A DNA stretch of 20,000 bases from an uncultured virus (IMG/VR IMGVR_UViG_3300028832_000125) (lineage: Duplodnaviria > Heunggongvirae > Uroviricota > Caudoviricetes): IMG/VR virus record IMGVR_UViG_3300028832_000125; one strand, 5' to 3'. Positions 3,001 through 19,947 of this stretch are shown here, one piece after another. Positions within the stretch are counted from its first letter, which is position 1, and each line of letters opens with the position of its first letter. Below the pieces are notes generated by a model. The model was not told the origin of the DNA and did not search any database. It saw only the letters and a program-made list of their open reading frames with translations. The position numbers were made by a program, and so were the translations under genes.

Positions 3001-5223
3001 TTCTATTCTGCCAGAACAGCAGTATTAACGGCCCTGTCAGAAAAGGCAAAGGAAGCCGCCGATAATGCACAGGAAACAGCCGATAATGCGAATGACAGGA
3101 TAGATGACATCGTGGCCGATGGCATCATCAGTGGCGGTGCAGAGAAAAGCGGTCTGTTCATTGACTGGATGAGGTGTGTACAGGAATACCTAAAGTACAC
3201 CGAACAGGCAACGAACTACAGCGTCTCTTCCACTAACTATGTCACGGCATATACGGCTCTTGCAACCATGCTGAACGGCGGCACGGCGGCAACCGCAAAC
3301 ATCCTCAATGGAACCACTCGCCCGGCATGGCTCACCACTACAAACATACTGCTCGACACAACGCTGTCCGACTACAGCCTAACGGCAGACCAGTACCGCA
3401 CAAAGTGGAGCACATACTACACTCAGTTGACGCTTCTCATCGAGGCCATTGGTGACAAGGTGAAAGCCCTCGCCGATGAGGCTCTGGAAGAGTTGGATAA
3501 CATGGCAGAGGATGATGTCTTGACTGAGTACGAGAAAATGGTTTGCCTCAGAGAGTGGGATGCGGCCAAGGCAGAGTACACATCGCTCGTTTCGCAGTTC
3601 GCTAATACGCCAGGAGTATCTACGACAGCCCTCGCCAATGCGTTCAATATACTGTCTAACTACCTCAATAACCTGTCAACGAATAATACGACAGCGTTCA
3701 CGGGTACGGCTCCTGCATTGCTCACCGCCTCCGGCAACACGTCTATCAACGGCACAACCTTCAAGACGTACTGGCGCAACTATTACGATGAGCGTTCTAA
3801 GTTGCTTGCATCAGGCTCGAACTCGAAGATTTCCGTCTTCGCCCAGAGTTCGCGTCCGACACCTCCATATAAAGTCGGTGATATATGGGTACAGACCGAT
3901 AACAATAACAATATGATGGTCTGTATCTATGGCCGCAGTGCAGGTGCTACAGGCGCAGACTCAGACTGGGCCGACATGTCGGACATCACAGAGAAGAGAG
4001 ACCCAAGAGTTCTGCTTGCCGCATTGTGTAATATGGTTTACAGTTACGCAGGCGGGTATATAAGGAACAAAAGTTCCAACTCATACCTGGCCGTATATCT
4101 CGGTTCGAAGCCCTCTTCTGGTCATGCAGATGGTGACTTGTCTTATTATAGTAGCACGGTCTATCAGTATGTATCGAGTACATCTGGATGGAGTTCAGTG
4201 ACTAACGATACACTGAAAACCTCGCTTAGTGCGCTGTATGGTGTCATCGGAACCTACACCGTCAGAATCTTCCGCACGAAGCCGTCATCACCGTCTGCTT
4301 TCGACATGGTGTGTACGCCTGTGAACTTCACTGACGCAAACGCTCCTTCTGGCTATCAGACCGTAGAGGGCGGTATCTGCATCCAGATGTATAACGGCTC
4401 CAGTTGGGAGGTGTTGCAGGAATCCGCACACAGTATCATTGAGAATATCAAGGGCTATATCCGTGCCGTTGCTTATAAGCGTGCTGATGACTACGCCACG
4501 GCAGCGGGGCTTATCACTACTTCCGATTGGGCTGACTTATTCGCAGAGGCCACCGATGCAGACGGCAATAAGATAGCAGAGGCCCACATGAGTGCGTTTA
4601 TTACGAAGGTGAAGTCCGGCAATGACTATTATATCGAAAGTGGTATAAAGATGAGTGCCGACAAAATCGTATTCACTGGAAAGACCGTCATCAACGGCAA
4701 ATTCACCGTAGATAACAACGGAAACGTCACGATGGATGGCTTCACGGCCACGAACGCAACTATCACTGGAACGATTAACGCTTCAAGCGGAAAGATAACA
4801 GGCACGATGACCGTAGGCACGTATGCTTCCAATAAGAACAGCATCAAAATCATCCCAGATGATTCAAACCCGTCTATCGTAGGATATGTCGGAACTACAG
4901 AGGTGTTCAGAATCGGTGCGCAGGTCAATTATGACGGAGGTACAAAAGCGACATTCAAGGTTGGAAGGTCGTATCTCCGCGAGGATGGACTTTACATACT
5001 TGCCGCTGACGGAAGCAACTGCCGCGCCTACTCAACAAGATTCATCGTTGAAAGAGTCATCAACAGCCTGCACTATCCTTTCTGTATCGACATCGATTCA
5101 AGCGGAAAAGTCATACTTGGTGCAAATGGTGCATCGATGTGGCCTACCTCGAAGAGTTATGTAGGATGGGGTGATATTTACGTTGACGGTGATGTTCTGA
5201 AGGTCAATATGGATGGTGGATAA
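1..5223 (+). CDS. Large phage tail/baseplate-associated structural protein, 5'-truncated, with six internal helical repeats
   Basis: The frame is open from position 1 (TCT GAG GCA AAG TTG...), so the real start is probably upstream of the window. Motifs resemble Bacteroidales phage tail proteins (SRLEVDELLVR..FAQLEIREISYVGG, DAIVQMGN...RQG, PTPPYKVGDIWV). The C-terminus is beta-rich (IKMSADKIVF..NATITGTINASSGKI). It lies upstream of the DGR target and lysis genes. Confidence 0.8.
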   Translation, partial: SEAKLNDAVNTINYRNSEYGQSGLGGSVYVIGTNDTTAPGDSNVYSALRSDRQYPRKNRNDVISSLWTFKHGRGLRRGIQTEDYNDEGANEDNLFGKGFELISKTDANGNIVSRLEVDELLVRIKAFFAQLEIREISYVGGNYCFSAAGSRIYYVDWIDANGNVIDKNVGSIANCAKFRCYLYSDDGTTATINKWAVDDQAMCRTFNIDSGVHQNVSNKYYWRRVVGVGRGVIPSEVVTPEFTDDVVPAPTQYQYVDISMADCAINSDYPEPDDAIVQMGNWSNENRQGMIYLMVEGDSAPAIMEYSGVGANGQHFVLPDPTLMLSPKKNIIYGEFHSVVDSEGGGSGDSIDDQLNALLDALNDIKNQADKKFEIWFGNYEPLPSKTNQSATPNFPASEWITDDLKALHAQDLFYDTYKAPATQRGRAWRWIAAEGANNTVVYYWEDVTDQDTIDALEKIADVASDGKLTGGAEKVRVFLDWEKAVEEYLKYTERARDYEITTELTNYRNAFKELAKMLNNNVALITSDTMTEIPTPAWLADLQAETVIPSPVTYRQKWTDYYTTLAALLQEIQRVAKALADAAQADATSALNKIGDMANDGKLDPTEKVTVKREFIACYHEMMDTDEAGYASGILDMAKNQNNQWIINYNTYILPYITAFRALGTYLNGGTTWNEPALATTIADSAWPSWIQSANMENTNDIAGSTWRDKWSDFYAKRTAVLTALTDNAQTTADDAHDRIDDIVSDGIISAGSEKSLLYIDWMKTVAEYKKYIEQAGDYFGDTNTQDDALVTAYTNLAKMLNNGANPTANILNGVDRPAWLTVANMNVDTVLADTPTATVANYHSVWNAYHTALTALLEVITKKAKELADAAQADATSALEKIGDMANDGKLDPSEKLTVKREFKAAWDEKDKSGGIIDMCYDATDSAIISTTTINAYINAFVALGTYLNNGTNWSAGSSVKNDTYRANDSNLPSWIQSANMSDTNTITGSTWRTKWSDFYSARTAVLTALSEKAKEAADNAQETADNANDRIDDIVADGIISGGAEKSGLFIDWMRCVQEYLKYTEQATNYSVSSTNYVTAYTALATMLNGGTAATANILNGTTRPAWLTTTNILLDTTLSDYSLTADQYRTKWSTYYTQLTLLIEAIGDKVKALADEALEELDNMAEDDVLTEYEKMVCLREWDAAKAEYTSLVSQFANTPGVSTTALANAFNILSNYLNNLSTNNTTAFTGTAPALLTASGNTSINGTTFKTYWRNYYDERSKLLASGSNSKISVFAQSSRPTPPYKVGDIWVQTDNNNNMMVCIYGRSAGATGADSDWADMSDITEKRDPRVLLAALCNMVYSYAGGYIRNKSSNSYLAVYLGSKPSSGHADGDLSYYSSTVYQYVSSTSGWSSVTNDTLKTSLSALYGVIGTYTVRIFRTKPSSPSAFDMVCTPVNFTDANAPSGYQTVEGGICIQMYNGSSWEVLQESAHSIIENIKGYIRAVAYKRADDYATAAGLITTSDWADLFAEATDADGNKIAEAHMSAFITKVKSGNDYYIESGIKMSADKIVFTGKTVINGKFTVDNNGNVTMDGFTATNATITGTINASSGKITGTMTVGTYASNKNSIKIIPDDSNPSIVGYVGTTEVFRIGAQVNYDGGTKATFKVGRSYLREDGLYILAADGSNCRAYSTRFIVERVINSLHYPFCIDIDSSGKVILGANGASMWPTSKSYVGWGDIYVDGDVLKVNMDGG
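1366..3810 (+). repeat. Six tandem ~130-150 aa protein repeats alternating two subtypes (A-B-A-B-A-diverged)
   Basis: Unit starts: 1366 ALEKIADVASDGKL, 1771 ALNKIGDMANDGKL, 2209 AHDRIDDIVSDGII, 2638 ALEKIGDMANDGKL, 3088 ANDRIDDIVADGII, 3481 ALEELDNMAEDDVL. Each unit ends in a W..[YF]Y or W..YH helix. DNA similarity is still visible (1741-1817 vs 2608-2684). Confidence 0.85.
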
Positions 5224-5239
5224 TCAAAACTCTGAGAAT

Positions 5240-5563
5240 ATGAAGATAGTTAGAAGCAAATGGTTCCCTCCAAAGGGGTATGCGGCGATTATGTTAGTGT
5301 GGTGGCTCATCATCCGTGAAGGCCACTCAGTCACATCACGCCTCGTTAATCACGAAGACATTCACAGCAGGCAGCAGAAGGAAATGCTGATACTGCCATT
5401 CTTCGTGTGGTATGGACTGGAGTTCCTGTTCCGGCTGATACAGTACCGCAACTGGGATAAGGCGTACAGAAACATATCCTTTGAGCGCGAGGCTTACGAG
5501 AATGAAATCAACATGGCCTACCTGCAATCCCGCAGGTGGCTCGGGTGGACGAAATATCTGTAA
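5240..5563 (+). CDS. Small HExxH-motif protein, putative zinc metallopeptidase-like, hydrophobic
   Basis: NHEDIH motif followed by SFEREAY (possible third zinc ligand). ATG 5240 follows an AT-rich stretch; an alternative ATG at 5213 overlaps the upstream gene. Confidence 0.65.
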   Translation: MKIVRSKWFPPKGYAAIMLVWWLIIREGHSVTSRLVNHEDIHSRQQKEMLILPFFVWYGLEFLFRLIQYRNWDKAYRNISFEREAYENEINMAYLQSRRWLGWTKYL

Positions 5564-12800: not shown

Positions 12801-13594
12801 CCGCCTCCGTGTACAACCAGATACGTGATGATGCGGGCCTCTCCAATGCGGTTGATACGGCCATGGCCAATATCGGCAGTCGTGGCATGAGTACGGCCTA
12901 TATCCCCACTGGCGGGTTCTGGGATGCCAACGAGCCTGACGGATTCAAGAAATTCGCGGCTAATCTGGCTGAAAGTGACTTCGCCACTGAGGAAAAGAAC
13001 CAGATTGTCATCAATCATGCCAAGGCCATCATTAACGGCCACCTCGGAGAGTCGTACCCGACCACTCCGGCAGAACTGGCAAACGCCATGCAGGCCCTCG
13101 TAGCAGCCATGACGGCGCAGGGTGTGACCTCACCTGCCAGATACAGGCAGTTGTACTATCCCGCCGCCTTCGCCTGTCATGTCTATCAGCCATCCGTTGA
13201 CGGTCAACTGAATGAACAGTACGCCCGTACCAAATGGATGCTTCCTTCGGAAGGTCTGCTGTGTAGGATATACGCCTTCTTCTACAACAGTTGCGGGCGT
13301 GTGACGTATGCAAATGGTGGTAGGTGTGTTGCATCAAACGCCAATGAGAACCCAGACAGCGAGGCACTGCTTCCGTTGTTCGCCAACCTCTTGAAGCGTA
13401 TTGATGATGCAGGGGTAACGACCACTCCGTTCACTATCCCGTCTAATAGCAACTACTGGTCAGTTACTGAGTACAGCAGCATCAACGCGTGGGGCGTGAG
13501 CTTCAATGATGGTGGCGTCAGCACCTACTCCATCAGCGGCAAGTCCAACTGTAACGTTGTTCGGCCAGTGGCAGCATTTACCTACAACCTTTAA
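6848..13594 (+). CDS. DGR target: 2248-aa putative receptor-binding/structural protein (Ig-like, LamG-like, CotH-kinase-like, LRR, C-terminal CLec-type variable domain)
   Basis: The 3' end contains the VR matching the TR. C-terminal YWSVTEY....AW.V.F..G...NVVRPVAAF is typical of C-type-lectin-fold DGR targets. LamG-like VRVFING..IFIG.DGADIDIYGIRVW at ~8250-9000. LRR-like LRKLSLKGC / IDLRDTKI / LRLPATMTSLSL at ~11670-12060. Confidence 0.9.
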   Translation: MADIINLQEAWEGHSGSEVETFIKKELKGRAGAVRWVQNSTYYSIQGFASAADKAAYISDPVGNANLLLFEEELPISTTQSDSYIARLYCDRDTSKSFAVKDGDTFSVGLRFSAIHVIAATSEQEKMDGNGTLIIERSTDGSTWTRVASQAIASVDIDTEGYPATVEIGRYLLTGRQNHIRLRATFGYTDAGGNDATMASGNIILSIASVSLAVTLQTNWAQPVQASQLTALPLQFMVEGSVRKYLHVQVSGIDGYSGHDSVEEYSAAQEGSMTVLCQDGAGTKGILRTGVHTVRAWLTADDGDGGTITSDVISHQLMMVNTNQPSTLMQPRLLIQSVASSIDNFVQGRVCKYAVYSPKLVDGSYTNQGDPVTFSLLLTDRSDDILAGNHVVYFDQEVTASPGQQYDLLATLEIEQNAGEVAAESFDTFLHATRMVGSTLTDFLLSSYGTGYMYVSVDNTGGFQPTAGSVFLLNPKTRNNSEANPRRILNGRNNNAEVESVWSEGFKMDGSDGWTVDDDGNKVLRIPAGCLLNIRYNPFAQFLNSPDSTLTIDLDFCVRNVVNEDDPIIRLCETLDAERGTFMGLRMRPMVGTMASALSEGVETETDFRWGEDRRTHISINIVPNVAPNTYGDGLVVAADQSRARGTLNLVRVFINGVINRELRFSTEAGAREFCTAALSNGGIFIGQDGADIDIYGIRVWDSTASAITPKDAIQNYISTLPTSEEKVRVKEKNAITKTNGLISLEACRDKGLRNMVWHGVEPFIKETSGSRGWIEMRCYDNNGNYLPECSGTICKESKSLKPKRQGTTANTYYYSNLQFKLSDVTDTIQVAVADFHSSIVISAPFESEGNTYVSIYGGNLGKDFPVGNATKDYPYADGYVTVPDGWIDGNGKYRGMGYMIAPNQPLAQKLVLKINYASSMQSHLIGINWLYHELHTRFCGQNSLQRDTPTALVAKHTEPLLFFTAGVNEEDPAAAVYRGPGAFGPGKMDKPTWGYSKNASKITDSSNAHYRPDGHDYFAMFEGANNNTILGDMVAPWDDTTHNGQEAKVYYDPDAEAFMYRKTTTREEVVDGQTTIVETVTSEKCIDFDGGPTDKVTVGGEELEYPKERVTAIFRNAVNFLYLHNPRVNIYRGTFAQLQQESMTEYQLKEKWWCRSNAGTDTDDYLLKRWDFYERRWVDAGLWNATILAYDKVDIRNYTGMNWSSMTAAEQADHTAVNAKFISCVVADAKAHIGEYFKESSLKFHYCFENHFIAGTDNCSKNTYYVIDPVTKLIELHQDDVDTTLATDNNGFQSKPYYVDRMHPWADSDPGHLDCCYEGRQNTLFNLCEEMWEGTHELSAALNSILSLMAQLSGGIGSAESDNMSGVWKALNRYIFDIQRYFPQVAFNEAARIRYEFPAMLGFLGRDVIDPLTQSMGDQLESELQFMNRRLVYMASYAVFGEFLPSQSGARNGLTGLDDASASMAFNAKALPDGVTTPTYTFHVKPHQYIYPCFGFQTDSKPSYTRVAPGQVFEFTVPGVVISDNGVSLFGLNYYRSVGNIGDMSCDPNIAFSLDGRRLTELVAEPTTYYPTPETLAGNPSATPVSVPTAGYQPAFRPASFRISTGTRLRKLSLKGCSTLSSSERAPLNLSPLTLCQEIDLRDTKIAAVNVPQTASMETLRLPATMTSLSLTAQQNLDTLTMQGGLLLTSLVITGCPSLSTQALIRSIFDERETAGTITPLDVLRLHDVNWNELKADVLMWMANATVAEIFGKVIMLRASNDRWLSFSEVIQLIRKFGDIQTVPSGNTVPSDRFYIDYQKRDVNGILIKGEKYVYTLGQHDIWEAAATNNVGNNIAVVNGREAVTWELVTAGASQYAQIVDNVKGTVNITNTYAYNEYMTFILRLTVLLLDGTSLTYDKKVGFHRRFPKINDFAYGDGSFDDEYDPSKELVGAVVKVDKLSDSQYKFWVYAKENAQLKSDDSTYNTASHVWGIYPDEAGSNGFPASVYNQIRDDAGLSNAVDTAMANIGSRGMSTAYIPTGGFWDANEPDGFKKFAANLAESDFATEEKNQIVINHAKAIINGHLGESYPTTPAELANAMQALVAAMTAQGVTSPARYRQLYYPAAFACHVYQPSVDGQLNEQYARTKWMLPSEGLLCRIYAFFYNSCGRVTYANGGRCVASNANENPDSEALLPLFANLLKRIDDAGVTTTPFTIPSNSNYWSVTEYSSINAWGVSFNDGGVSTYSISGKSNCNVVRPVAAFTYNL
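13446..13579 (+). repeat. DGR variable region (VR)
   Basis: Aligns to 14233-14357. Outside the AAC tract there are 11 substitutions, all at TR adenines (6 A>G, 4 A>T, 1 A>C), with no non-A mismatch. There are 9 extra nt at the AAC tract. Confidence 0.97.
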
Positions 13595-13626: not shown

Positions 13627-13660
13627 ATCCTCTGAACCAGAAATAAGACAAGTGGAAAAG

Positions 13661-14110
13661 ATGCAAGAGACAGAAAGTTCACGGGGTGTTGTGATTCCCG
13701 ACTCCGTTGTTGAGAGTAGCAACACCAAGAAAAGGTCTGCAAAGAAGACGTTGGCTCAACTTCCAGTTTACAGGGCAACGGCCAACTTGAAATACATCGT
13801 GACCGCTCTGATTGTGAAGAGTCCGAATAAACTGAGGAAATTCTTCGACCAGATGTTGGTCAACGTGTCGGAGGTTGCAAAGGCCATCGGCATGGCTGAT
13901 ATTTCAAGGAGTCCGGCAGACAGGGTGTGGTACATCGAGACCGCCCTTGTGCTCGTAAACGAAGTGAGAAATGATTTCACCATCCTGCGGAAACTGGAGG
14001 TCATTGTTGACAAAGACCTCGACAACAAGGCAAAGGCAATGGTGAAGAGTGTGATTGCGCAGCTTGTGGCGTGGCGCGATTACACCTGTGGCGAGGGTGC
14101 CAAATCGTAA
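13661..14110 (+). CDS. avd: DGR accessory protein, Avd-like four-helix bundle
   Basis: Lies between VR and TR/RT; ~150 aa, helical; AQLPVYRA..L near the N-terminus and a C-terminal QLVAW helix resemble Avd/four-helix-bundle proteins. Alternative GTG start at 13652. Confidence 0.8.
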   Translation: MQETESSRGVVIPDSVVESSNTKKRSAKKTLAQLPVYRATANLKYIVTALIVKSPNKLRKFFDQMLVNVSEVAKAIGMADISRSPADRVWYIETALVLVNEVRNDFTILRKLEVIVDKDLDNKAKAMVKSVIAQLVAWRDYTCGEGAKS

Positions 14111-14135
14111 ATCCGATTCTTCGAGAAAAAGAGAT

Positions 14136-15650
14136 ATGACAGGCAGAGTGTTACATAATCCGTTAAATGGGCGATTTACTGCGGTGGATATTATGGTTCA
14201 TCGCAGTTACGATGATGCAAAATCGCAGACAGATAGCAACTACTGGTCAGTTACTGAGAACAACAGCAACAACGCGTGGAACGTGAACTTCAATGATGGT
14301 AACGTCAACAACAACAACAAGTACAACAGTAACGTTGTTCGGCCAGTGGCAGCATATGACGGTTTATTCAACATCTTCTATGAGTCCGTGGAATATGCGT
14401 ATCATGATTGTCTGAGAGGCAAGATGTCTTCAACACAGGCAATGGAGTATATGCAGATTGCATGGGCTGACCTTCCATGTCTTGCATGGGAGTTGTGGAC
14501 TGGCATATACAGGCCCACGACCTCCACTTGTTTTCTGGTCAGATACCCTAAACTCAGAGAGGTGTTCGCGGCTAACTTCCGTGACCGTATCGTTCATCAC
14601 TGGGTATGCCTCAGACTGGAGCCGTTGTTTGAAGAGCGGTTCATCGCACAGGGTAACGTGTCATTCAACTGCCGCAAGGGGTTCGGTACGCAGAAATGCG
14701 TGGAGCACTGCGCGGAAGGCATGGAGAGGGTGTCCGGCCACTACAGAATACCCGCATGGGTGTTCAAGGGTGACTTGACTGGATTCTTCATGTCGATAGA
14801 CAAGGCCCTGCTGTGGTATCTTCTGGAGAGATTCATCACCAGATGGCGCAAGAGGTACGAGCGAGAGGGATGGGCGAGGATAGGCAGTGACATCCTTGAC
14901 CGCCTCGGTCTGGACGCGATGCCCGAAATGTACTGGGACATACTACTGAGGACAACGCAGGTCATCGTCATGCACCATCCAGAGAAAGACTGCGTGCTCA
15001 ATTCGTCTGCTTCCCTCTGGGGCGGGCTTGCACCCAATAAGTCTCTTTTCGGGTGCGGTGAGGAAAAGGGAGAGCCGATAGGCAACCTCACAACGCAGTT
15101 GTTCGCCAATTTCCTCATGTCATACTTTGACCAGTACGTTCTCTACCTGTTCAGAAGACAGAACTACTCATACGAGAGGTTCGTTGATGACTTCGACAAT
15201 ATCTGCGATGATATGCAGTTCCTGTTGTCGGCCATTCCTAAGATGGAGGCGTTCCTTCGTGAGAAGTTGAAACTGACGCTCCATAAGGATAAGCGTTACC
15301 TGCAACAGGTGACGCACGGCCTCATGCTCGTTGGGACTTACATCAAACCCGGCAGGCTGTACCTGTCTAACAGGACGCTTGCGAGGTTCGCCGAGCGTGC
15401 AGAGGGATTCAGAAAACTCATGGAGTGCAAGGATGAGTTGACCATACTCGACTGCAAGCGCATCGAGCAGGTCATCAACTCCTATCTGGGATTCTGCAAG
15501 GGCAAGAGGACGTACAAAAGGAGAAAGGAGATACTGGACTCGATGGGGCCGCTTTTCTTCAAGTATTTCTACATCAAGGGGCACTATGACAGTATTAGGG
15601 CAAAGAATAAGTACAGGGAGTTGATTCTTCCGTTTAATATCAATCAATAA
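14136..15650 (+). CDS. DGR reverse transcriptase
   Basis: RT motifs: PKLREVFAANFRDRIVHH, NCRKGFGT, KGDLTGFFMSID, GEPIGNLTTQLFAN, YERFVDDF, LTLHKDK, LVGTYIKP. Adjacent to TR and avd. First ATG after the avd stop is 14136; the exact start is uncertain. Confidence 0.95.
   Translation: MTGRVLHNPLNGRFTAVDIMVHRSYDDAKSQTDSNYWSVTENNSNNAWNVNFNDGNVNNNNKYNSNVVRPVAAYDGLFNIFYESVEYAYHDCLRGKMSSTQAMEYMQIAWADLPCLAWELWTGIYRPTTSTCFLVRYPKLREVFAANFRDRIVHHWVCLRLEPLFEERFIAQGNVSFNCRKGFGTQKCVEHCAEGMERVSGHYRIPAWVFKGDLTGFFMSIDKALLWYLLERFITRWRKRYEREGWARIGSDILDRLGLDAMPEMYWDILLRTTQVIVMHHPEKDCVLNSSASLWGGLAPNKSLFGCGEEKGEPIGNLTTQLFANFLMSYFDQYVLYLFRRQNYSYERFVDDFDNICDDMQFLLSAIPKMEAFLREKLKLTLHKDKRYLQQVTHGLMLVGTYIKPGRLYLSNRTLARFAERAEGFRKLMECKDELTILDCKRIEQVINSYLGFCKGKRTYKRRKEILDSMGPLFFKYFYIKGHYDSIRAKNKYRELILPFNINQ
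14233..14357 (+). ncRNA. DGR template region (TR), overlapping the RT reading frame
   Basis: 125 nt, 46 adenines and 14 AAC codons by manual count. Identical to the VR at all aligned non-A positions. Confidence 0.95.
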
Positions 15651-16456: not shown

Positions 16457-17044
16457 ATGGATACGACTGTAGGAGCAAAAGCCTTGATGTGGGGTTCCAT
16501 AGGAACCGAGTTGATAGGTGTTGTCTATGACCTCAGATACATGGTTATCTGTTCGGTTGTTCTTATCCTGGCTGACTTGTGGTGGGGTTACTCAGAGTCC
16601 AAACTGCGGCTGTCGGAGGCAAAGGAGAAAGGCAGTGCCGCCCTTGAAGAGAAATTCAAGTGGCACAAGAGCCGGGCAGGGCGCAGGACGGCAAACAAGG
16701 TTGTTGACTATCTGACATATCTCGTAGTCGGAGCCTTCATCGGCCTCGCCATCACGGAACCAATGGATATTTGTAGCCATATATGGAGTGCCGCCATCGG
16801 CCTCGGTATCGGCTGTGCCTGCGAGATTGCCTCTATCATAGGGCATATCGCCTACGTGAAACTCGGAGTTGAAATCAGCCTGGTTGACGGGTGGAGAGTA
16901 TTCGTCCGATTCTTGGGAAAACTTATCAAGTCAAAGAGTAACGAGATTGGTGAGGCCGTGGAAGACTTGGGGCGTGAGGGCCACCGTCACCACCATCACC
17001 ACATGCCGGACATCTATGACGAAGAGCAGAATATGGAGTTTTAG
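16457..17044 (+). CDS. Phage holin
   Basis: Several hydrophobic segments; ADLWWG...KSRAGRRTANKVVDYLTYL...CEIASIIGH pattern of Bacteroidales phage holins; directly upstream of the endolysin. Confidence 0.8.
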   Translation: MDTTVGAKALMWGSIGTELIGVVYDLRYMVICSVVLILADLWWGYSESKLRLSEAKEKGSAALEEKFKWHKSRAGRRTANKVVDYLTYLVVGAFIGLAITEPMDICSHIWSAAIGLGIGCACEIASIIGHIAYVKLGVEISLVDGWRVFVRFLGKLIKSKSNEIGEAVEDLGREGHRHHHHHMPDIYDEEQNMEF

Positions 17045-17047
17045 AAT

Positions 17048-17608
17048 ATGGCAAGACTTGAAACATTATGGCCTTTCATCCTTTCGTGGGAAGGAGGCTT
17101 CGCAAACGTCCCCGGTGACAAGGGCGGTGCAACGAAGTACGGTGTCACCATATCCACTTGGAAAGCGCAGGGCTATGACAAGGATGGTGACGGTGACATA
17201 GACGTACAGGACTTGAAACTCATCACCACCGATGATGCCATGAGGATATGCCGCTTGAACTTCTGGAACCGTTGGAAAGCGGATGAGATTAAAGACCAGA
17301 GCGTGGCAAACCTGCTCGTTGACTGGGTATGGGCCTCTGGTGCACACGGCATAAAGAGACCTCAGAGAATCCTCGGTGTGAAGGTTGACGGTATCGTAGG
17401 CCCTAAGACCATCGCCGCCATCAATAACTGGAAGTACGGGCAGCGCGACCTGTTCAATGCCATTATGAAAGACCGTCTGGCCTTCATAAACAGCATTGCG
17501 GTAGGTACGCAGGCCAAGTTCAAGACGGGTTGGCTGAACCGTCTTCGTTCCATCCAGTACGGGTCTCTGACACTGAACACTAACCCGAAGAAAACGGTGA
17601 GGTTCTGA
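17048..17608 (+). CDS. Endolysin, glycoside hydrolase family 108 with C-terminal peptidoglycan-binding domain
   Basis: WEGGFANVPGDKGGATKYGVT catalytic motif, then QRILGVKVDGIVGPKT and KFKTGWLNR. Confidence 0.92.
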   Translation: MARLETLWPFILSWEGGFANVPGDKGGATKYGVTISTWKAQGYDKDGDGDIDVQDLKLITTDDAMRICRLNFWNRWKADEIKDQSVANLLVDWVWASGAHGIKRPQRILGVKVDGIVGPKTIAAINNWKYGQRDLFNAIMKDRLAFINSIAVGTQAKFKTGWLNRLRSIQYGSLTLNTNPKKTVRF

Positions 17609-17892
17609 TGGATAGACTGGAAAAGTTCGAGCGCGTGGAGTTCGTGGAGTACATGCCAGACCCTACCGAATACGAGTGGGCCGTGCTGTATGTAAGCATC
17701 TATTTCGGTCTCGCCATCTGCCTGTGCCCGTGCGGCTGCGGAACACCTTGCGTCATGCCGCTGAAACCCAATGACCCGCAAGGGTGGGATTTCTCAGAGC
17801 ATAACGGCAAGGTCACTCTCTCGCCATCCGTTCTACAGGATGGATGCAATGCGCATTTCTTTATTAGGGACAATAAAATAATTTGGGTATGA
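17608..17892 (+). CDS. DUF6527-like small Cys/His protein
   Basis: CLCPCGCG...W.....G.VTLSPSV....CNAHFFIRDNKIIW matches my recollection of the DUF6527 pattern. Start and stop overlap both neighbours. Confidence 0.75.
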   Translation: MDRLEKFERVEFVEYMPDPTEYEWAVLYVSIYFGLAICLCPCGCGTPCVMPLKPNDPQGWDFSEHNGKVTLSPSVLQDGCNAHFFIRDNKIIWV

Positions 17893-18458
17893 CTGAATAC
17901 GAGGTTTACAGAAGGTACTGGGAACACAGGTTGTACGAGCAGAACGGTTGCGGCCCTATGGTCGTATGTGTCCTGCTGTTGATCCTGTTCCTGGCCGCCT
18001 GCTGCCCTTGCAAGAATCTGGAAAACACGACAACGTTAGTTGAGCGTGATTCCACAGATACCAAGGTGAAGACTGAGATTATCTATGTCACCGACACGCT
18101 GTTGGTCGAGATTCCGGCCCAGAAGGCTGAGAGGACAACGGCAGACAGCGCGAGTCACCTTGAAAACGACTACGCCATGTCCGATGCGAGAATCAATCCA
18201 GACGGTACACTGTTCCACAGTCTCGAGACGAAGCCTCAGCAGAAGCCTGTCGAGTTCCAGAAGCCTGTCGAGAAAAAGGACAGCATCATCTACAGGTACA
18301 AGTACCGTGACAAGGAGGTAATCGTTGAAAAGAAACTCACCAGATGGGAAAAGTTCAAAATGGACTATGGAGGGTTTGCCTTCGGTGCCACCGTGGCATT
18401 GCTCCTACTGACCATCTACAGGGTTGTCAGAAAGGTGAAGAAGTTCACTATCATGTAG
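17889..18458 (+). CDS. Lipoprotein with C-terminal TM helix, putative unimolecular spanin
   Basis: Hydrophobic stretch plus lipobox (VLLLILFLAA-C), beta-rich middle, and C-terminal TM (YGGFAFGATVALLLLTIY) followed by a basic tail. Last gene of the lysis cassette. ATGA overlap at 17889; alternative ATG at 17958. Confidence 0.7.
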   Translation: MTEYEVYRRYWEHRLYEQNGCGPMVVCVLLLILFLAACCPCKNLENTTTLVERDSTDTKVKTEIIYVTDTLLVEIPAQKAERTTADSASHLENDYAMSDARINPDGTLFHSLETKPQQKPVEFQKPVEKKDSIIYRYKYRDKEVIVEKKLTRWEKFKMDYGGFAFGATVALLLLTIYRVVRKVKKFTIM

Positions 18459-18461
18459 AGT

Positions 18462-18496
18462 TGAGGGGTTGGCGAAGGGCTGACCCCTCATTCTTT
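18462..18496 (+). terminator. Intrinsic terminator between the convergent lysis operon and integrase
   Basis: TGAGGGGTTGGC-GAAGG-GCTGACCCCTCA (12-bp stem, two G:U pairs) followed by TTCTTT. The integrase stop codon lies in the right arm. Confidence 0.7.
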
Positions 18497-19729
18497 CCCC
18501 AAAACGTAGTCTATCACCTTGCGGTTTGCAGCGTCCACCTTGGCCATGTTGTAGTCAATGTAGATGGCCGTTGTCTTATTGGTGATGGAGTGGCCCAGAG
18601 AGGCAGAAATCGTCTCATGCGGTATATCCAACTCGCTTGCTATCGTAGCCCATGTGTGACGCGCCCAGTATGATGACAGGCCGGGGAAGGCGGCATGATG
18701 CACCTTGTGGAGCCTGTGCTTATGACTCCCCGGCTTCCATTTCGGGTTTGGCTCATAGGTCACGGGGCCTATCTCTTTGAGTCCCCTGTCGAACTTCTGC
18801 GTGAACGTCCGTGGCAGTCTGATGTCATCCATGAGATTCAGCAGGTGTTTCTTGCCACGGTAGCGGCTGATGATTTCCATCGCCTCCGGCTCCACCTTGA
18901 TACTATACATCTTCTTTGTCTTCGCACGCTTATAGACCAGATGGCCGTCCGGCGATATGTCGTAGAGCAGGCAGAGGTCTGTCACGTTGATGCCGATGAG
19001 GAAGAATGACAGTTTGAACATGTCGAGGTAACGCTGCTGATACGGCTCCACTGGATAGTTGAACAGTTCCCGCAGTTGACTGAGGGTGAGTGAGCGTTTC
19101 TTGGTGGCCTCCGGCCTTATCTTGAACTTGCGGAACGGGTAGGCAGTGGTGATGTCATTGTCTATGGCATCGTTGAAGACGGCACGGATATTCCTCAGAT
19201 GGATATTGCGCCCGTTCTTTGAGGGTGAGCACTTCATCAAGAAACGCTCGAAGCCGTCAAGCCATTCCTTTGATATGTCCTCGAAGGTGAGGGTACGCGC
19301 CTTGGAGTCATATTCCAGAATCTTCTTTAGCGTCTGGTCGTATTTCTCCTTAGTGCTTGCGGCATCCCGTGTGGAGGCATAGAGTTCAAATCGGTGAACC
19401 AGAGAATTAGGCTCATAGTCCTTTGGCTCCAGAATGGCCATCAGCCTGTTCTTAATCTGGGTGGCCGACAGTTTGGTTAGTTCCCCTTCAACGGTAAGCC
19501 TCATCAGCAGGTTGCTGACTTCCGTTTTACGGTTGGCGATGAAGGAGTTGATACTTTGCCTGTTCGGGTGTTCCTTGACCCTCTCCCTTACTGAATCCCA
19601 CTGGTTGGGGTGAATCCACTGGCCGAGGGGTATGTATGCCGATGACCCCCGCTTGTTGATGCCAATCTTTAGTTGCGCCTCAGAGCCTCTGAGACTGCGC
19701 CTGTCGAGATAAATGTGTACCGTTGCCAT
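18488..19729 (-). CDS. int: Tyrosine recombinase / phage integrase
   Basis: N-terminal arm-binding-type region (IYLDRR..LKIGI), SAM-like core (TFEDISKEWLDGFERFL), catalytic-region motifs YKRAKT, YWARHTWAT, LGHS, TAIY. Adjacent to a tRNA 3' end. Confidence 0.95.
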   Translation of the reverse strand: MATVHIYLDRRSLRGSEAQLKIGINKRGSSAYIPLGQWIHPNQWDSVRERVKEHPNRQSINSFIANRKTEVSNLLMRLTVEGELTKLSATQIKNRLMAILEPKDYEPNSLVHRFELYASTRDAASTKEKYDQTLKKILEYDSKARTLTFEDISKEWLDGFERFLMKCSPSKNGRNIHLRNIRAVFNDAIDNDITTAYPFRKFKIRPEATKKRSLTLSQLRELFNYPVEPYQQRYLDMFKLSFFLIGINVTDLCLLYDISPDGHLVYKRAKTKKMYSIKVEPEAMEIISRYRGKKHLLNLMDDIRLPRTFTQKFDRGLKEIGPVTYEPNPKWKPGSHKHRLHKVHHAAFPGLSSYWARHTWATIASELDIPHETISASLGHSITNKTTAIYIDYNMAKVDAANRKVIDYVLGKE

Positions 19730-19790: not shown

Positions 19791-19859
19791 CTCCGTAACC
19801 GTTTCCTTATTTCATTGCTCTTTGCCCTTTGTTTACGGGCCTCATACGCTATTATTTCG

Positions 19860-19947
19860 CGGAGAGAACAGGATTCGAACCTGCGAACCGCTTTTGACGG
19901 TTACACGCTTTCCAGGCGTGCCTCTTCAACCACTCGAGCACCTCTCC
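19860..19947 (-). tRNA. tRNA-Ser(GGA), probable prophage integration site
   Basis: Reverse complement: GGAGAGGTGCTCGAGTGGTTGAAGAGGCACGCCTGGAAAGCGTGTAACCGTCAAAAGCGGTTCGCAGGTTCGAATCCTGTTCTCTCCG. Acceptor stem, anticodon loop CT-GGA-AA, long variable arm and TTCGAAT T-loop are present; CCA is not encoded. Confidence 0.97.

Follow-up and report, generated by a model that had tools for sequence, protein, structure and literature searches.

What does a lone gene of the DUF6527/BubE family, a family otherwise placed in bacterial ubiquitination-like (Bub) operons, do in the lysis cassette of a phage? The gene lies in a stretch of 20,000 nucleotides—the window—which is the terminal part of a virus record of 78,707 bases that is 98% complete. 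An integrase and a tRNA-Ser at the end of the record, part of the tRNA being repeated at the other end, point to an integrated temperate phage. Near-identical DNA is found mainly in sequencing runs labelled bovine gut, and Bacteroidales are the presumed host because two close relatives come from MAGs of Prevotella and of Bacteroidaceae.

According to Ye et al., BubE is a DUF6527 protein: a β-sandwich Ser-His protease that has a C4 zinc site and is extended by a hydrophobic stretch at its N- or C-terminus (bioRxiv 10.1101/2024.11.21.623953, PMC11601596). In E. coli, BubE removed BubA conjugates, for which S92 and H102 were required, and in vitro it cleaved BubA-GFP very weakly. The precursor in Type I Bub is processed by a JAB domain, not by BubE (PMC11601596), and Bub is switched on by DNA-damage regulators (PMC11601596; PMC13373217). 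The structure of BubE remained unsolved by these authors, whose truncations were insoluble (PMC11601596). A further source on the system is Gong et al. (10.1101/2024.11.21.623966). An earlier note on this DNA had described DUF6527 proteins of Bub operons as Ser-His peptidases that process the ubiquitin-like protein (Ubl); the peptidase assignment stands, and the cell role shown by Ye et al. is the removal of conjugates rather than Ubl processing.

The gene and its protein

The cassette and the prophage end consist of the following features:

16457..17044, + strand: putative holin-like membrane protein (hydrophobic segments; place ahead of the endolysin)
17048..17608, + strand: GH108 endolysin with PG_binding_3 (Pfam E 3.5e-22; PHROG 315, endolysin)
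17608..17892, + strand: stand-alone gene of the DUF6527/BubE family, 94 aa, core domain only (Pfam PF20137, E 3.6e-20; model pLDDT 91; purifying selection)
17725..17847, + strand: Cys40, Cys42, Cys44 and Cys80, predicted C4 zinc site (BubE C57/C59/C61/C99 pattern)
17827..17829, + strand: codon of Ser74, the counterpart of catalytic S92 of Citrobacter BubE and S65 of E. coli BubE (L-x-P-S position; alignments A1, A2 and A4)
17854..17856, + strand: codon of His83, the counterpart of catalytic H102/H76 of BubE (three residues past the fourth Zn Cys; alignments A1 and A4)
17889..18458, + strand: putative spanin-like protein (lipobox-like Cys; hydrophobic C-terminal stretch)
18462..18490, + strand: terminator-like hairpin, the putative end of the late transcript (12-pair stem, T-rich tail)
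18488..19729, − strand: tyrosine integrase at the prophage end (Pfam Phage_int_SAM_5 and Arm-DNA-bind_5)
19859..19947, − strand: tRNA-Ser(GGA), the likely attachment site given the partial repeat at the other record end (ARAGORN)

The ATG of the BubE-like gene overlaps the endolysin stop by one base (TGATG, 17606–17610), and its stop overlaps the ATG of the next gene (ATGA, 17889–17892), an overlap of 10 bases if the latter starts at TTG 17883. This 94-aa frame with its CPCGCG, TLSPSV and CNAHFFI motifs and its two overlaps had been picked out in the earlier note, and both translation and coordinates agree. Homologues number 73 at E ≤ 0.001, 20 of which share 56–88% identity over the full length, so the frame is more than a chance one. 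The dN/dS values are 0.03–0.13 in the 5 of 10 window pairs free of saturation (rough values, with dS > 1.6) and 0.11–0.26 among relatives (eight printed pairs). The gene is confirmed as real and under purifying selection. Its GC3 resembles that of the adjacent genes, near-identical intact copies lie on contigs of two other bovine-gut data sets, and a joined form lacking the gene was not seen in four sequencing runs. The contigs of one RNA run hold parts of the endolysin and spanin-like genes and not the BubE-like gene, a result that is uninformative either way.

The upstream gene is an endolysin, as had been proposed, by its GH108 match in Pfam and by PHROG 315. The downstream neighbour keeps the label spanin-like for its lipobox-like Cys and hydrophobic stretch, with no family match over the cut-off for 17889–18458; in relatives, a DUF6808 gene occupies this slot. 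No family match over the cut-off was found for the holin-like protein (16457–17044) either, which features a His-rich C-terminal tail. Across the region, the numbers of terminator-like sites and of sites in a promoter scan are not above those in shuffles. Elsewhere in the window, a diversity-generating retroelement (13446–13577 and 13652–15650) comprises an RVT_1 reverse transcriptase and a small accessory gene, with its variable and template repeats at the C-terminus of a 2248-aa protein. Past the long tail protein, a 116-aa gene (5213–5563) matches PHROG 15610, labelled protease.

The 94-aa protein belongs to the BubE family: residues 35–94 match PF20137 (DUF6527) with 72 bits against a cut-off of 23.6 (E 3.6e-20), which bears out the family named in the earlier note. 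In the Atlas, the family is named BubE and the features of the protein score 0.96 to BubE clusters; in the two nearest clusters of short BubE proteins, 57% and 50% of the members with a record are viral. A BubE profile search against 50% representatives returns 3603 matches. The match to PHROG 15183 leads to a family without assigned function, and NCBIfam gave no match for the protein.

Ser74 and His83 map to S92 and H102 of the Citrobacter BubE, and C40, C42, C44 and C80 to C57, C59, C61 and C99—a mapping counted by eye on Table S2, where S92 lies in L-x-P-S and H102 three residues after C99. At the level of the alignment, the Ser-His dyad, whose presence the earlier note had wished to see checked, and the four-Cys motif are shown to be intact in the phage protein. 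Both Ser and His are invariant in alignment A4. The Ser is kept in 46 of 48 rows of the window's clade (clade 1; the other two are gaps), in all 72 copies of a second clade (clade 2; the Ser lies outside the pattern of that search) and in 20 of 20 Bub copies, and the His is near-invariant across copies. Of the 48 clade-1 rows, 15 have Asp for the second Zn cysteine, and in many the fourth lies two residues away from its usual position. Where Type II BubE has a His ahead of the motif, the close clade (A1) carries an extra Cys.

The AlphaFold2 model features eight strands, is all-β without any helix of four or more residues and has a pLDDT of 91, that is, a predicted compact eight-strand β-sandwich, with no solved BubE to compare it to. 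Searches of the PDB by sequence returned only chance repeats with the single protein and no matches with the profile, Foldseek found no PDB match at E ≤ 0.001, and the best VIA hit (Z 4.6 over 44 residues) is not meaningful and says nothing on fold novelty. The BFVD holds one clear match: an 89-aa viral protein without a name (TM 0.87).

The hydrophobic N- or C-terminal extension of BubE is absent: the protein ends one residue past the last core Trp, and clade-1 phage copies end 0–2 residues past it, whereas the 20 operon copies compared extend at one end. Compared with Type II BubE of E. coli ZDHYS365, the phage protein is the same in domain, N-terminal region, Ser-His dyad and Cys4 motif and, by prediction, accommodates the C-terminus of BubA at the same site. 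It differs in having no C-terminal extension, no bubA or bubBD in its replicon and a replaced Gly-Asn-Trp after the catalytic Ser-Ile, which is Leu-Gln-Asp here and is also replaced in the close clade. Moreover, Type II BubE stands under a DNA-damage regulator, whereas the phage gene stands in a lysis cassette. The identity to 15 Bacteroidota Type II BubE proteins is 29–45%. Compared with the biochemically tested Type I BubE of Citrobacter sp. RHBSTW-00271, dyad and Cys residues map and both proteins end after the last core strand, but the phage protein has no hydrophobic N-terminal extension (first Zn Cys at 40 instead of 57) and is accompanied by neither BubAB nor BubCD.

The earlier note had found no E1, E2 or Ubl gene in the window, and this holds for the whole 78.7-kb record, in which Pfam gives no match to ThiF, Multi_ubiq or Prok-E2_E. 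Seven Bub/Tad1-like protein queries and a BubA profile found nothing in the record, and tblastn with four BubBD/BubCD queries gave no match there; the BubA profile and family search did recover BubA in control loci. A JAB match in the record was rejected, being below the cut-off and interrupted by two stops. With no Ubl, E1, E2 or intact JAB in the record, the protein is a member of the domain family and not part of a Bub operon.

Lone copies in phages

Searches with A1 returned 30 viral, 7 genome and 23 metagenome loci, with clade-1 copies far from A1 under-sampled. Six of the 30 viral matches (L023, L025–L027, L029 and L030) were dropped for a chance CPCGC or a wrong frame, and L041, the weak L078–L082 (E ≥ 1e-4), the duplicate contigs L044, L052, L053, L055 and L064 and others stand outside the tallies. 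In 19 of the 21 close loci, an endolysin ends at most 400 bases upstream—at most 12 in 17 of them—and these 19 endolysins belong to three unrelated families (7 GH108, 5 Amidase_3 and 7 Amidase_2); the remaining two loci are a contig edge and a broken copy behind a holin-like gene. The eight Clostridia-type loci, four so named in their record and four assigned by likeness, comprise five behind an M15 or CHAP endolysin, two contig edges and one broken copy. Upstream of the gene in the 12 remoter clade-1 loci, none of the five endolysin types named occurs; these loci lie among head, tail or baseplate genes or in accessory regions, and their carriers include the jumbo phages FLC9 and pEa_SNUABM_29 as well as Dulem virus 40.

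Several of these surroundings are peculiar in themselves. Two broken copies, L058:2368–2610 and L017:1007–1309, both from lysis regions, lack the N-terminal half. A gene for Peptidase C10 with dockerin lies just 5′ of the lysis genes in two related phages, L006 (4086–5303) and L058 (481–1353). A DUF4406–DUF6527 fusion, DUF4406 being nucleoside deoxyribosyltransferase-like, occurs in a non-structural phage region (L016:5560–6183; P0227–P0233 and P0237). In P0238, DUF6527 lies within a 1169-aa Leifsonia protein that also matches PF05593 and PF14410, which we take to be RHS-type.

Among the best 80 loci for the GH108 endolysin of the window—many of them near-duplicates, and three cut too close to judge—the BubE-like gene is present in one and absent from 79, and in most of them the endolysin is directly followed by the spanin-like gene. 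The BubE-like gene is hence accessory and not a conserved core component of lysis.

Clade 2 is divergent and comprises 246 viral loci, of which 80 were kept, with 72 distinct copies. Thirteen of the 72 lie directly behind an endolysin (Amidase_2, SLT, Muramidase, GH108, phage lysozyme, GH19 or M15_4, and one recognized by its PG-binding domain only) and five at another place of a lysis cassette; a terminase, portal, head or tail gene adjoins 21 copies by Pfam and two more by likeness, and 31 are unlabelled. L232 (3544–3864) holds a tandem pair of DUF6527 genes followed by a KTSC gene. A 99% branch parts clade 2 from the Bub copies and from the window's clade, and the endolysin label needs at least four changes on starred branches within it; the post-endolysin slot was therefore probably filled repeatedly. 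The trees are built on approximately 100 columns with many open forks and carry no claim on donor or order of events. Within this poor resolution, the Type II BubE proteins of Bacteroidota do not enclose the window's clade. The idea that the gene was recently taken from a Type II operon of that phylum finds no support in the tree or in the GC3, which is like that of the neighbours.

Lone phage copies of BubE are thus widespread (hundreds) and lie mostly in late operons, and the survey of orphan copies in phage late regions that the earlier note had called for finds them common. Partner genes are scarce around them: among 141 phage-context loci, BubBD or BubCD occurs in none and a BubA-like gene in one. 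A Tad1-like neighbour is likewise present in one of the 141. In the BubA-like case, a BubA-like domain (L018:2447–2869, profile E 5e-5) and an orphan DUF6527 gene (L018:5845–6204) are separated by a portal-like gene, and no E1 was seen in the 10.5-kb contig. In the Tad1-like case, which belongs to a non-structural part of a prophage, the orphan DUF6527 gene (L102:1144–1779, G529) lies directly 5′ of the Tad1-like gene, whose match to solved Tad1 has E 4e-4. ThiF occurs in 1 of 27 other phage records carrying the gene, approximately 38 kb away and paired with Prok-E2_D, another E2 type; this cassette (L074:1087–3330, G009), presumably PRTRC-like, lies in a related phage that also bears an orphan DUF6527 gene.

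The BubE family itself is already known; what is new is that extension-free BubE is widespread in phages outside Bub operons, mostly in late operons. No report of phage-borne BubE was found in the literature searched, which was mostly open literature; such copies might be mentioned in the 2026 journal version of Ye et al.

Bub in presumed hosts and a predicted complex

Type II Bub occurs in 3 of 401 genomes (under 1%) of the family of the Prevotella MAG, the presumed host family. These loci feature Multi_ubiq, DUF6791 plus ThiF, and DUF6527, with HTH and IrrE-like genes nearby, and one of the three has a split bubBD. A Type II operon with bubBD broken into two frames is seen at L083:7143–8326 (G107). 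In the phylum, Bub was found in 16 of 401 genomes and the DUF6527 family in 21 of 401 with 22 loci: 12 Type II, 5 Type I-like, 2 beside TCAD9 and 3 orphans. L103 and L104 carry a DUF6527 gene with a longer C-terminal part 3′ of a TCAD9/kinase-like gene, outside Bub operons. Samples of Clostridia, made up of incomplete MAGs, showed only the orphan DUF6527 gene itself (401 genomes of one order; 301 of one family) and no Multi_ubiq gene (221 genomes of the class). A text search of Table S1 of Ye et al. (PMC11601596) gave no entries for Prevotella, Bacteroides or Clostridi.

The modelled complex pairs the window protein and zinc with the last of the BubA domains in G253, from the presumed host family. 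In the PDB searches, no solved relative of BubE turned up from which such a prediction could have been copied. The score is 0.86 (runs 0.88, 0.01 and 0.86) compared with 0.05 for the best of three controls; in a calibration on a job that differs from the present one, 116 of 157 solved pairs scored as high as 0.86, as did 2 of 215 mismatched ones. The contact agreement between runs is at least 44% and the partner pLDDT at least 85, with one run of three having failed. The predicted interface includes the BubA tail (residues 69–76) and residues 73–79 and 83 of the window protein, so that the C-terminus of BubA possibly sits at Ser74/His83. Because 15 rows of operon BubE were in the alignment and the job departs from the calibration, the pass speaks at least for family likeness and only possibly for binding. 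The patch predicted to grip BubA (V13, M16, P17, F33, V49 and P51) is Type II BubE-like in the close clade. As judged by closeness to Type II BubE, interface positions do not differ significantly from other positions (p 0.38 for the window protein and 0.19 for the clade) in a test that is weak, BubII against itself giving p 0.08.

What the protein may do

The preferred reading, with a probability of about 0.5, is a deconjugase that the phage makes late and that removes Bub tags; as a soluble Ser-His peptidase, it would cancel host tagging. As suggested by the gene overlaps, the gene would be translated at a late lytic stage alongside the lysis genes, coupled to the endolysin. As suggested by the missing extension, the protein would stay soluble in the cytoplasm, free of the membrane restriction proposed for host BubE. 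There it would grip the last β-grasp domain of BubA, as predicted by the model, and Ser74/His83 would cut BubA from tagged proteins, as in BubE. Bub would have to tag late proteins of the phage and removal of the tag would have to help the phage; both are assumed here. Such removal would cancel DNA-damage-induced Bub, plausibly at induction or infection, while virions are built, and the post-endolysin slot would be a convenient site of late expression rather than a sign of a lysis function.

The earlier note's suggestion that the protein counters conjugation-based defence is supported in part, namely by the intact dyad, the late lone copies, the presence of Bub in the presumed host family and the BubA model. 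The accessory distribution, 1 of 80 related endolysin loci, also resembles that of a counter-defence gene. The strongest counterpoint to a Bub deconjugase is that neither Ye et al. (PMC11601596) nor PMC13373217 demonstrates an antiviral role of Bub. Further points against it are the rarity of Bub in the host family, the diverged strand after the Ser and the extremely weak activity of BubE in vitro, and the Clostridia samples without Bub count against a Bub target for the Clostridia-type branch. That phages of at least three host groups repeatedly took the off-switch of Bub, trimmed it to its soluble core and placed it in late operons as a counter-defence deubiquitinase is a broader proposal, to which somewhat less than even odds are given.

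The general idea of a late phage protein that strips a Ubl has precedent: Bil tags the central tail fibre of phages, as the earlier note had stated in general terms, and DUB domains of tail assembly proteins were speculated to counter Bil (Hor et al., bioRxiv 10.1101/2023.09.04.556158, the latter in the Discussion). The siphophage proteins embody the same idea, a late phage protein that would remove a Ubl from virion proteins, but their DUBs are domains of tail assembly proteins, whereas the BubE-like protein is free, accessory, of another fold and a Ser-His protein aimed at Bub by descent. The DUB domains of the siphophage tail assembly proteins are presumably JAB-type. Another comparison is offered by small accessory counter-defence genes such as the sponges of the Tad1/Acb2 type, which bind signalling nucleotides. 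Phage BubE is likewise small, patchy and mobile, with one relative beside a Tad1-like gene; in contrast to the sponges, it would be the captured off-switch enzyme of the targeted system itself.

If the protein is an active deconjugase, its substrate may be other or wider than Bub: Bil Ubls, PRTRC-type Ubls or Cap2-linked CBASS cyclases. Such a target would fit a dyad that is kept next to a post-Ser strand unlike that of Type II BubE, Clostridia-type copies that persist where Bub was not found, the ThiF and Prok-E2_D cassette in a related phage and the tagging of tail proteins by Bil during assembly. However, the hydrophobic patch is Type II BubE-like and the model accepts BubA, and this extension to other tags is considered unlikely, although it fares best among the alternatives to a Bub deconjugase.

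The size of the phage clade raises the question of whether Ubl is the substrate at all. A late peptidase native to phages that processes a phage protein during head or tail assembly, with Bub having borrowed the fold and the Ubl link being secondary, would account for a 246-locus clade set apart by a 99% branch, for the 21 of 72 copies that adjoin terminase, portal, head or tail genes and for the viral majority or half in the nearest Atlas clusters of short BubE (57% and 50%). Against this, the gene is patchy and missing from 79 of 80 related lysis loci, has no fixed partner, changes neighbours over the tree and also occurs in non-structural regions, which makes an assembly peptidase a little less likely still.

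Nearly the same low standing is given to an accessory lysis enzyme that would pass through holin lesions and cut an amide or isopeptide-like link of the envelope, or process a lysis protein. The position directly behind endolysins recurs in two clades split by a well-supported branch, with at least four changes of the endolysin label in clade 2, and the gene is coupled to both neighbours here; moreover, BubE cleaves peptide and isopeptide bonds, and the gene is present where Bub was not found. The neighbouring endolysins, however, come from hosts with either one or two membranes and represent approximately ten unrelated catalytic families, so that no shared protein substrate is evident. In clade 2, virion-gene neighbours (21) outnumber post-endolysin copies (13), most related cassettes do without the gene, and the protein carries no signal or cell-wall-binding domain, nor do 15 longer homologues (weak evidence). 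Processing of lysis proteins, which the earlier note had offered as its other option, is the weaker alternative because 79 of 80 loci do without the gene, the endolysins are unrelated and many copies lie by packaging and virion genes.

Improbable is a passenger or non-catalytic binder in a tolerant late slot, drifting or sequestering BubA: the rare and patchy occurrence, the two broken copies (L058 and L017) and the Asp at the second Zn Cys in 15 of 48 clade-1 rows would suit it, but dN/dS is far below 1, Ser and His are near-invariant, the slot is kept across endolysin swaps and near-identical copies recur in two bovine-gut data sets.

For the Bub system, the late phage copies of BubE suggest looking for its role in phage assembly or release, and they make the question of that role directly testable. 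As the structure of BubE is unsolved and its truncations were insoluble, the extension-free proteins of 90–100 aa are ready candidates for structure determination and enzymology. If the broader proposal of repeated uptake for counter-defence is true, the phage protein would be a stand-alone phage enzyme against bacterial ubiquitin-like tagging, and Bub would be an antiviral system acting on late phage proteins. Removal of tags by the host's own BubE or by that of a phage would then explain why Bub looks inactive in phage tests.
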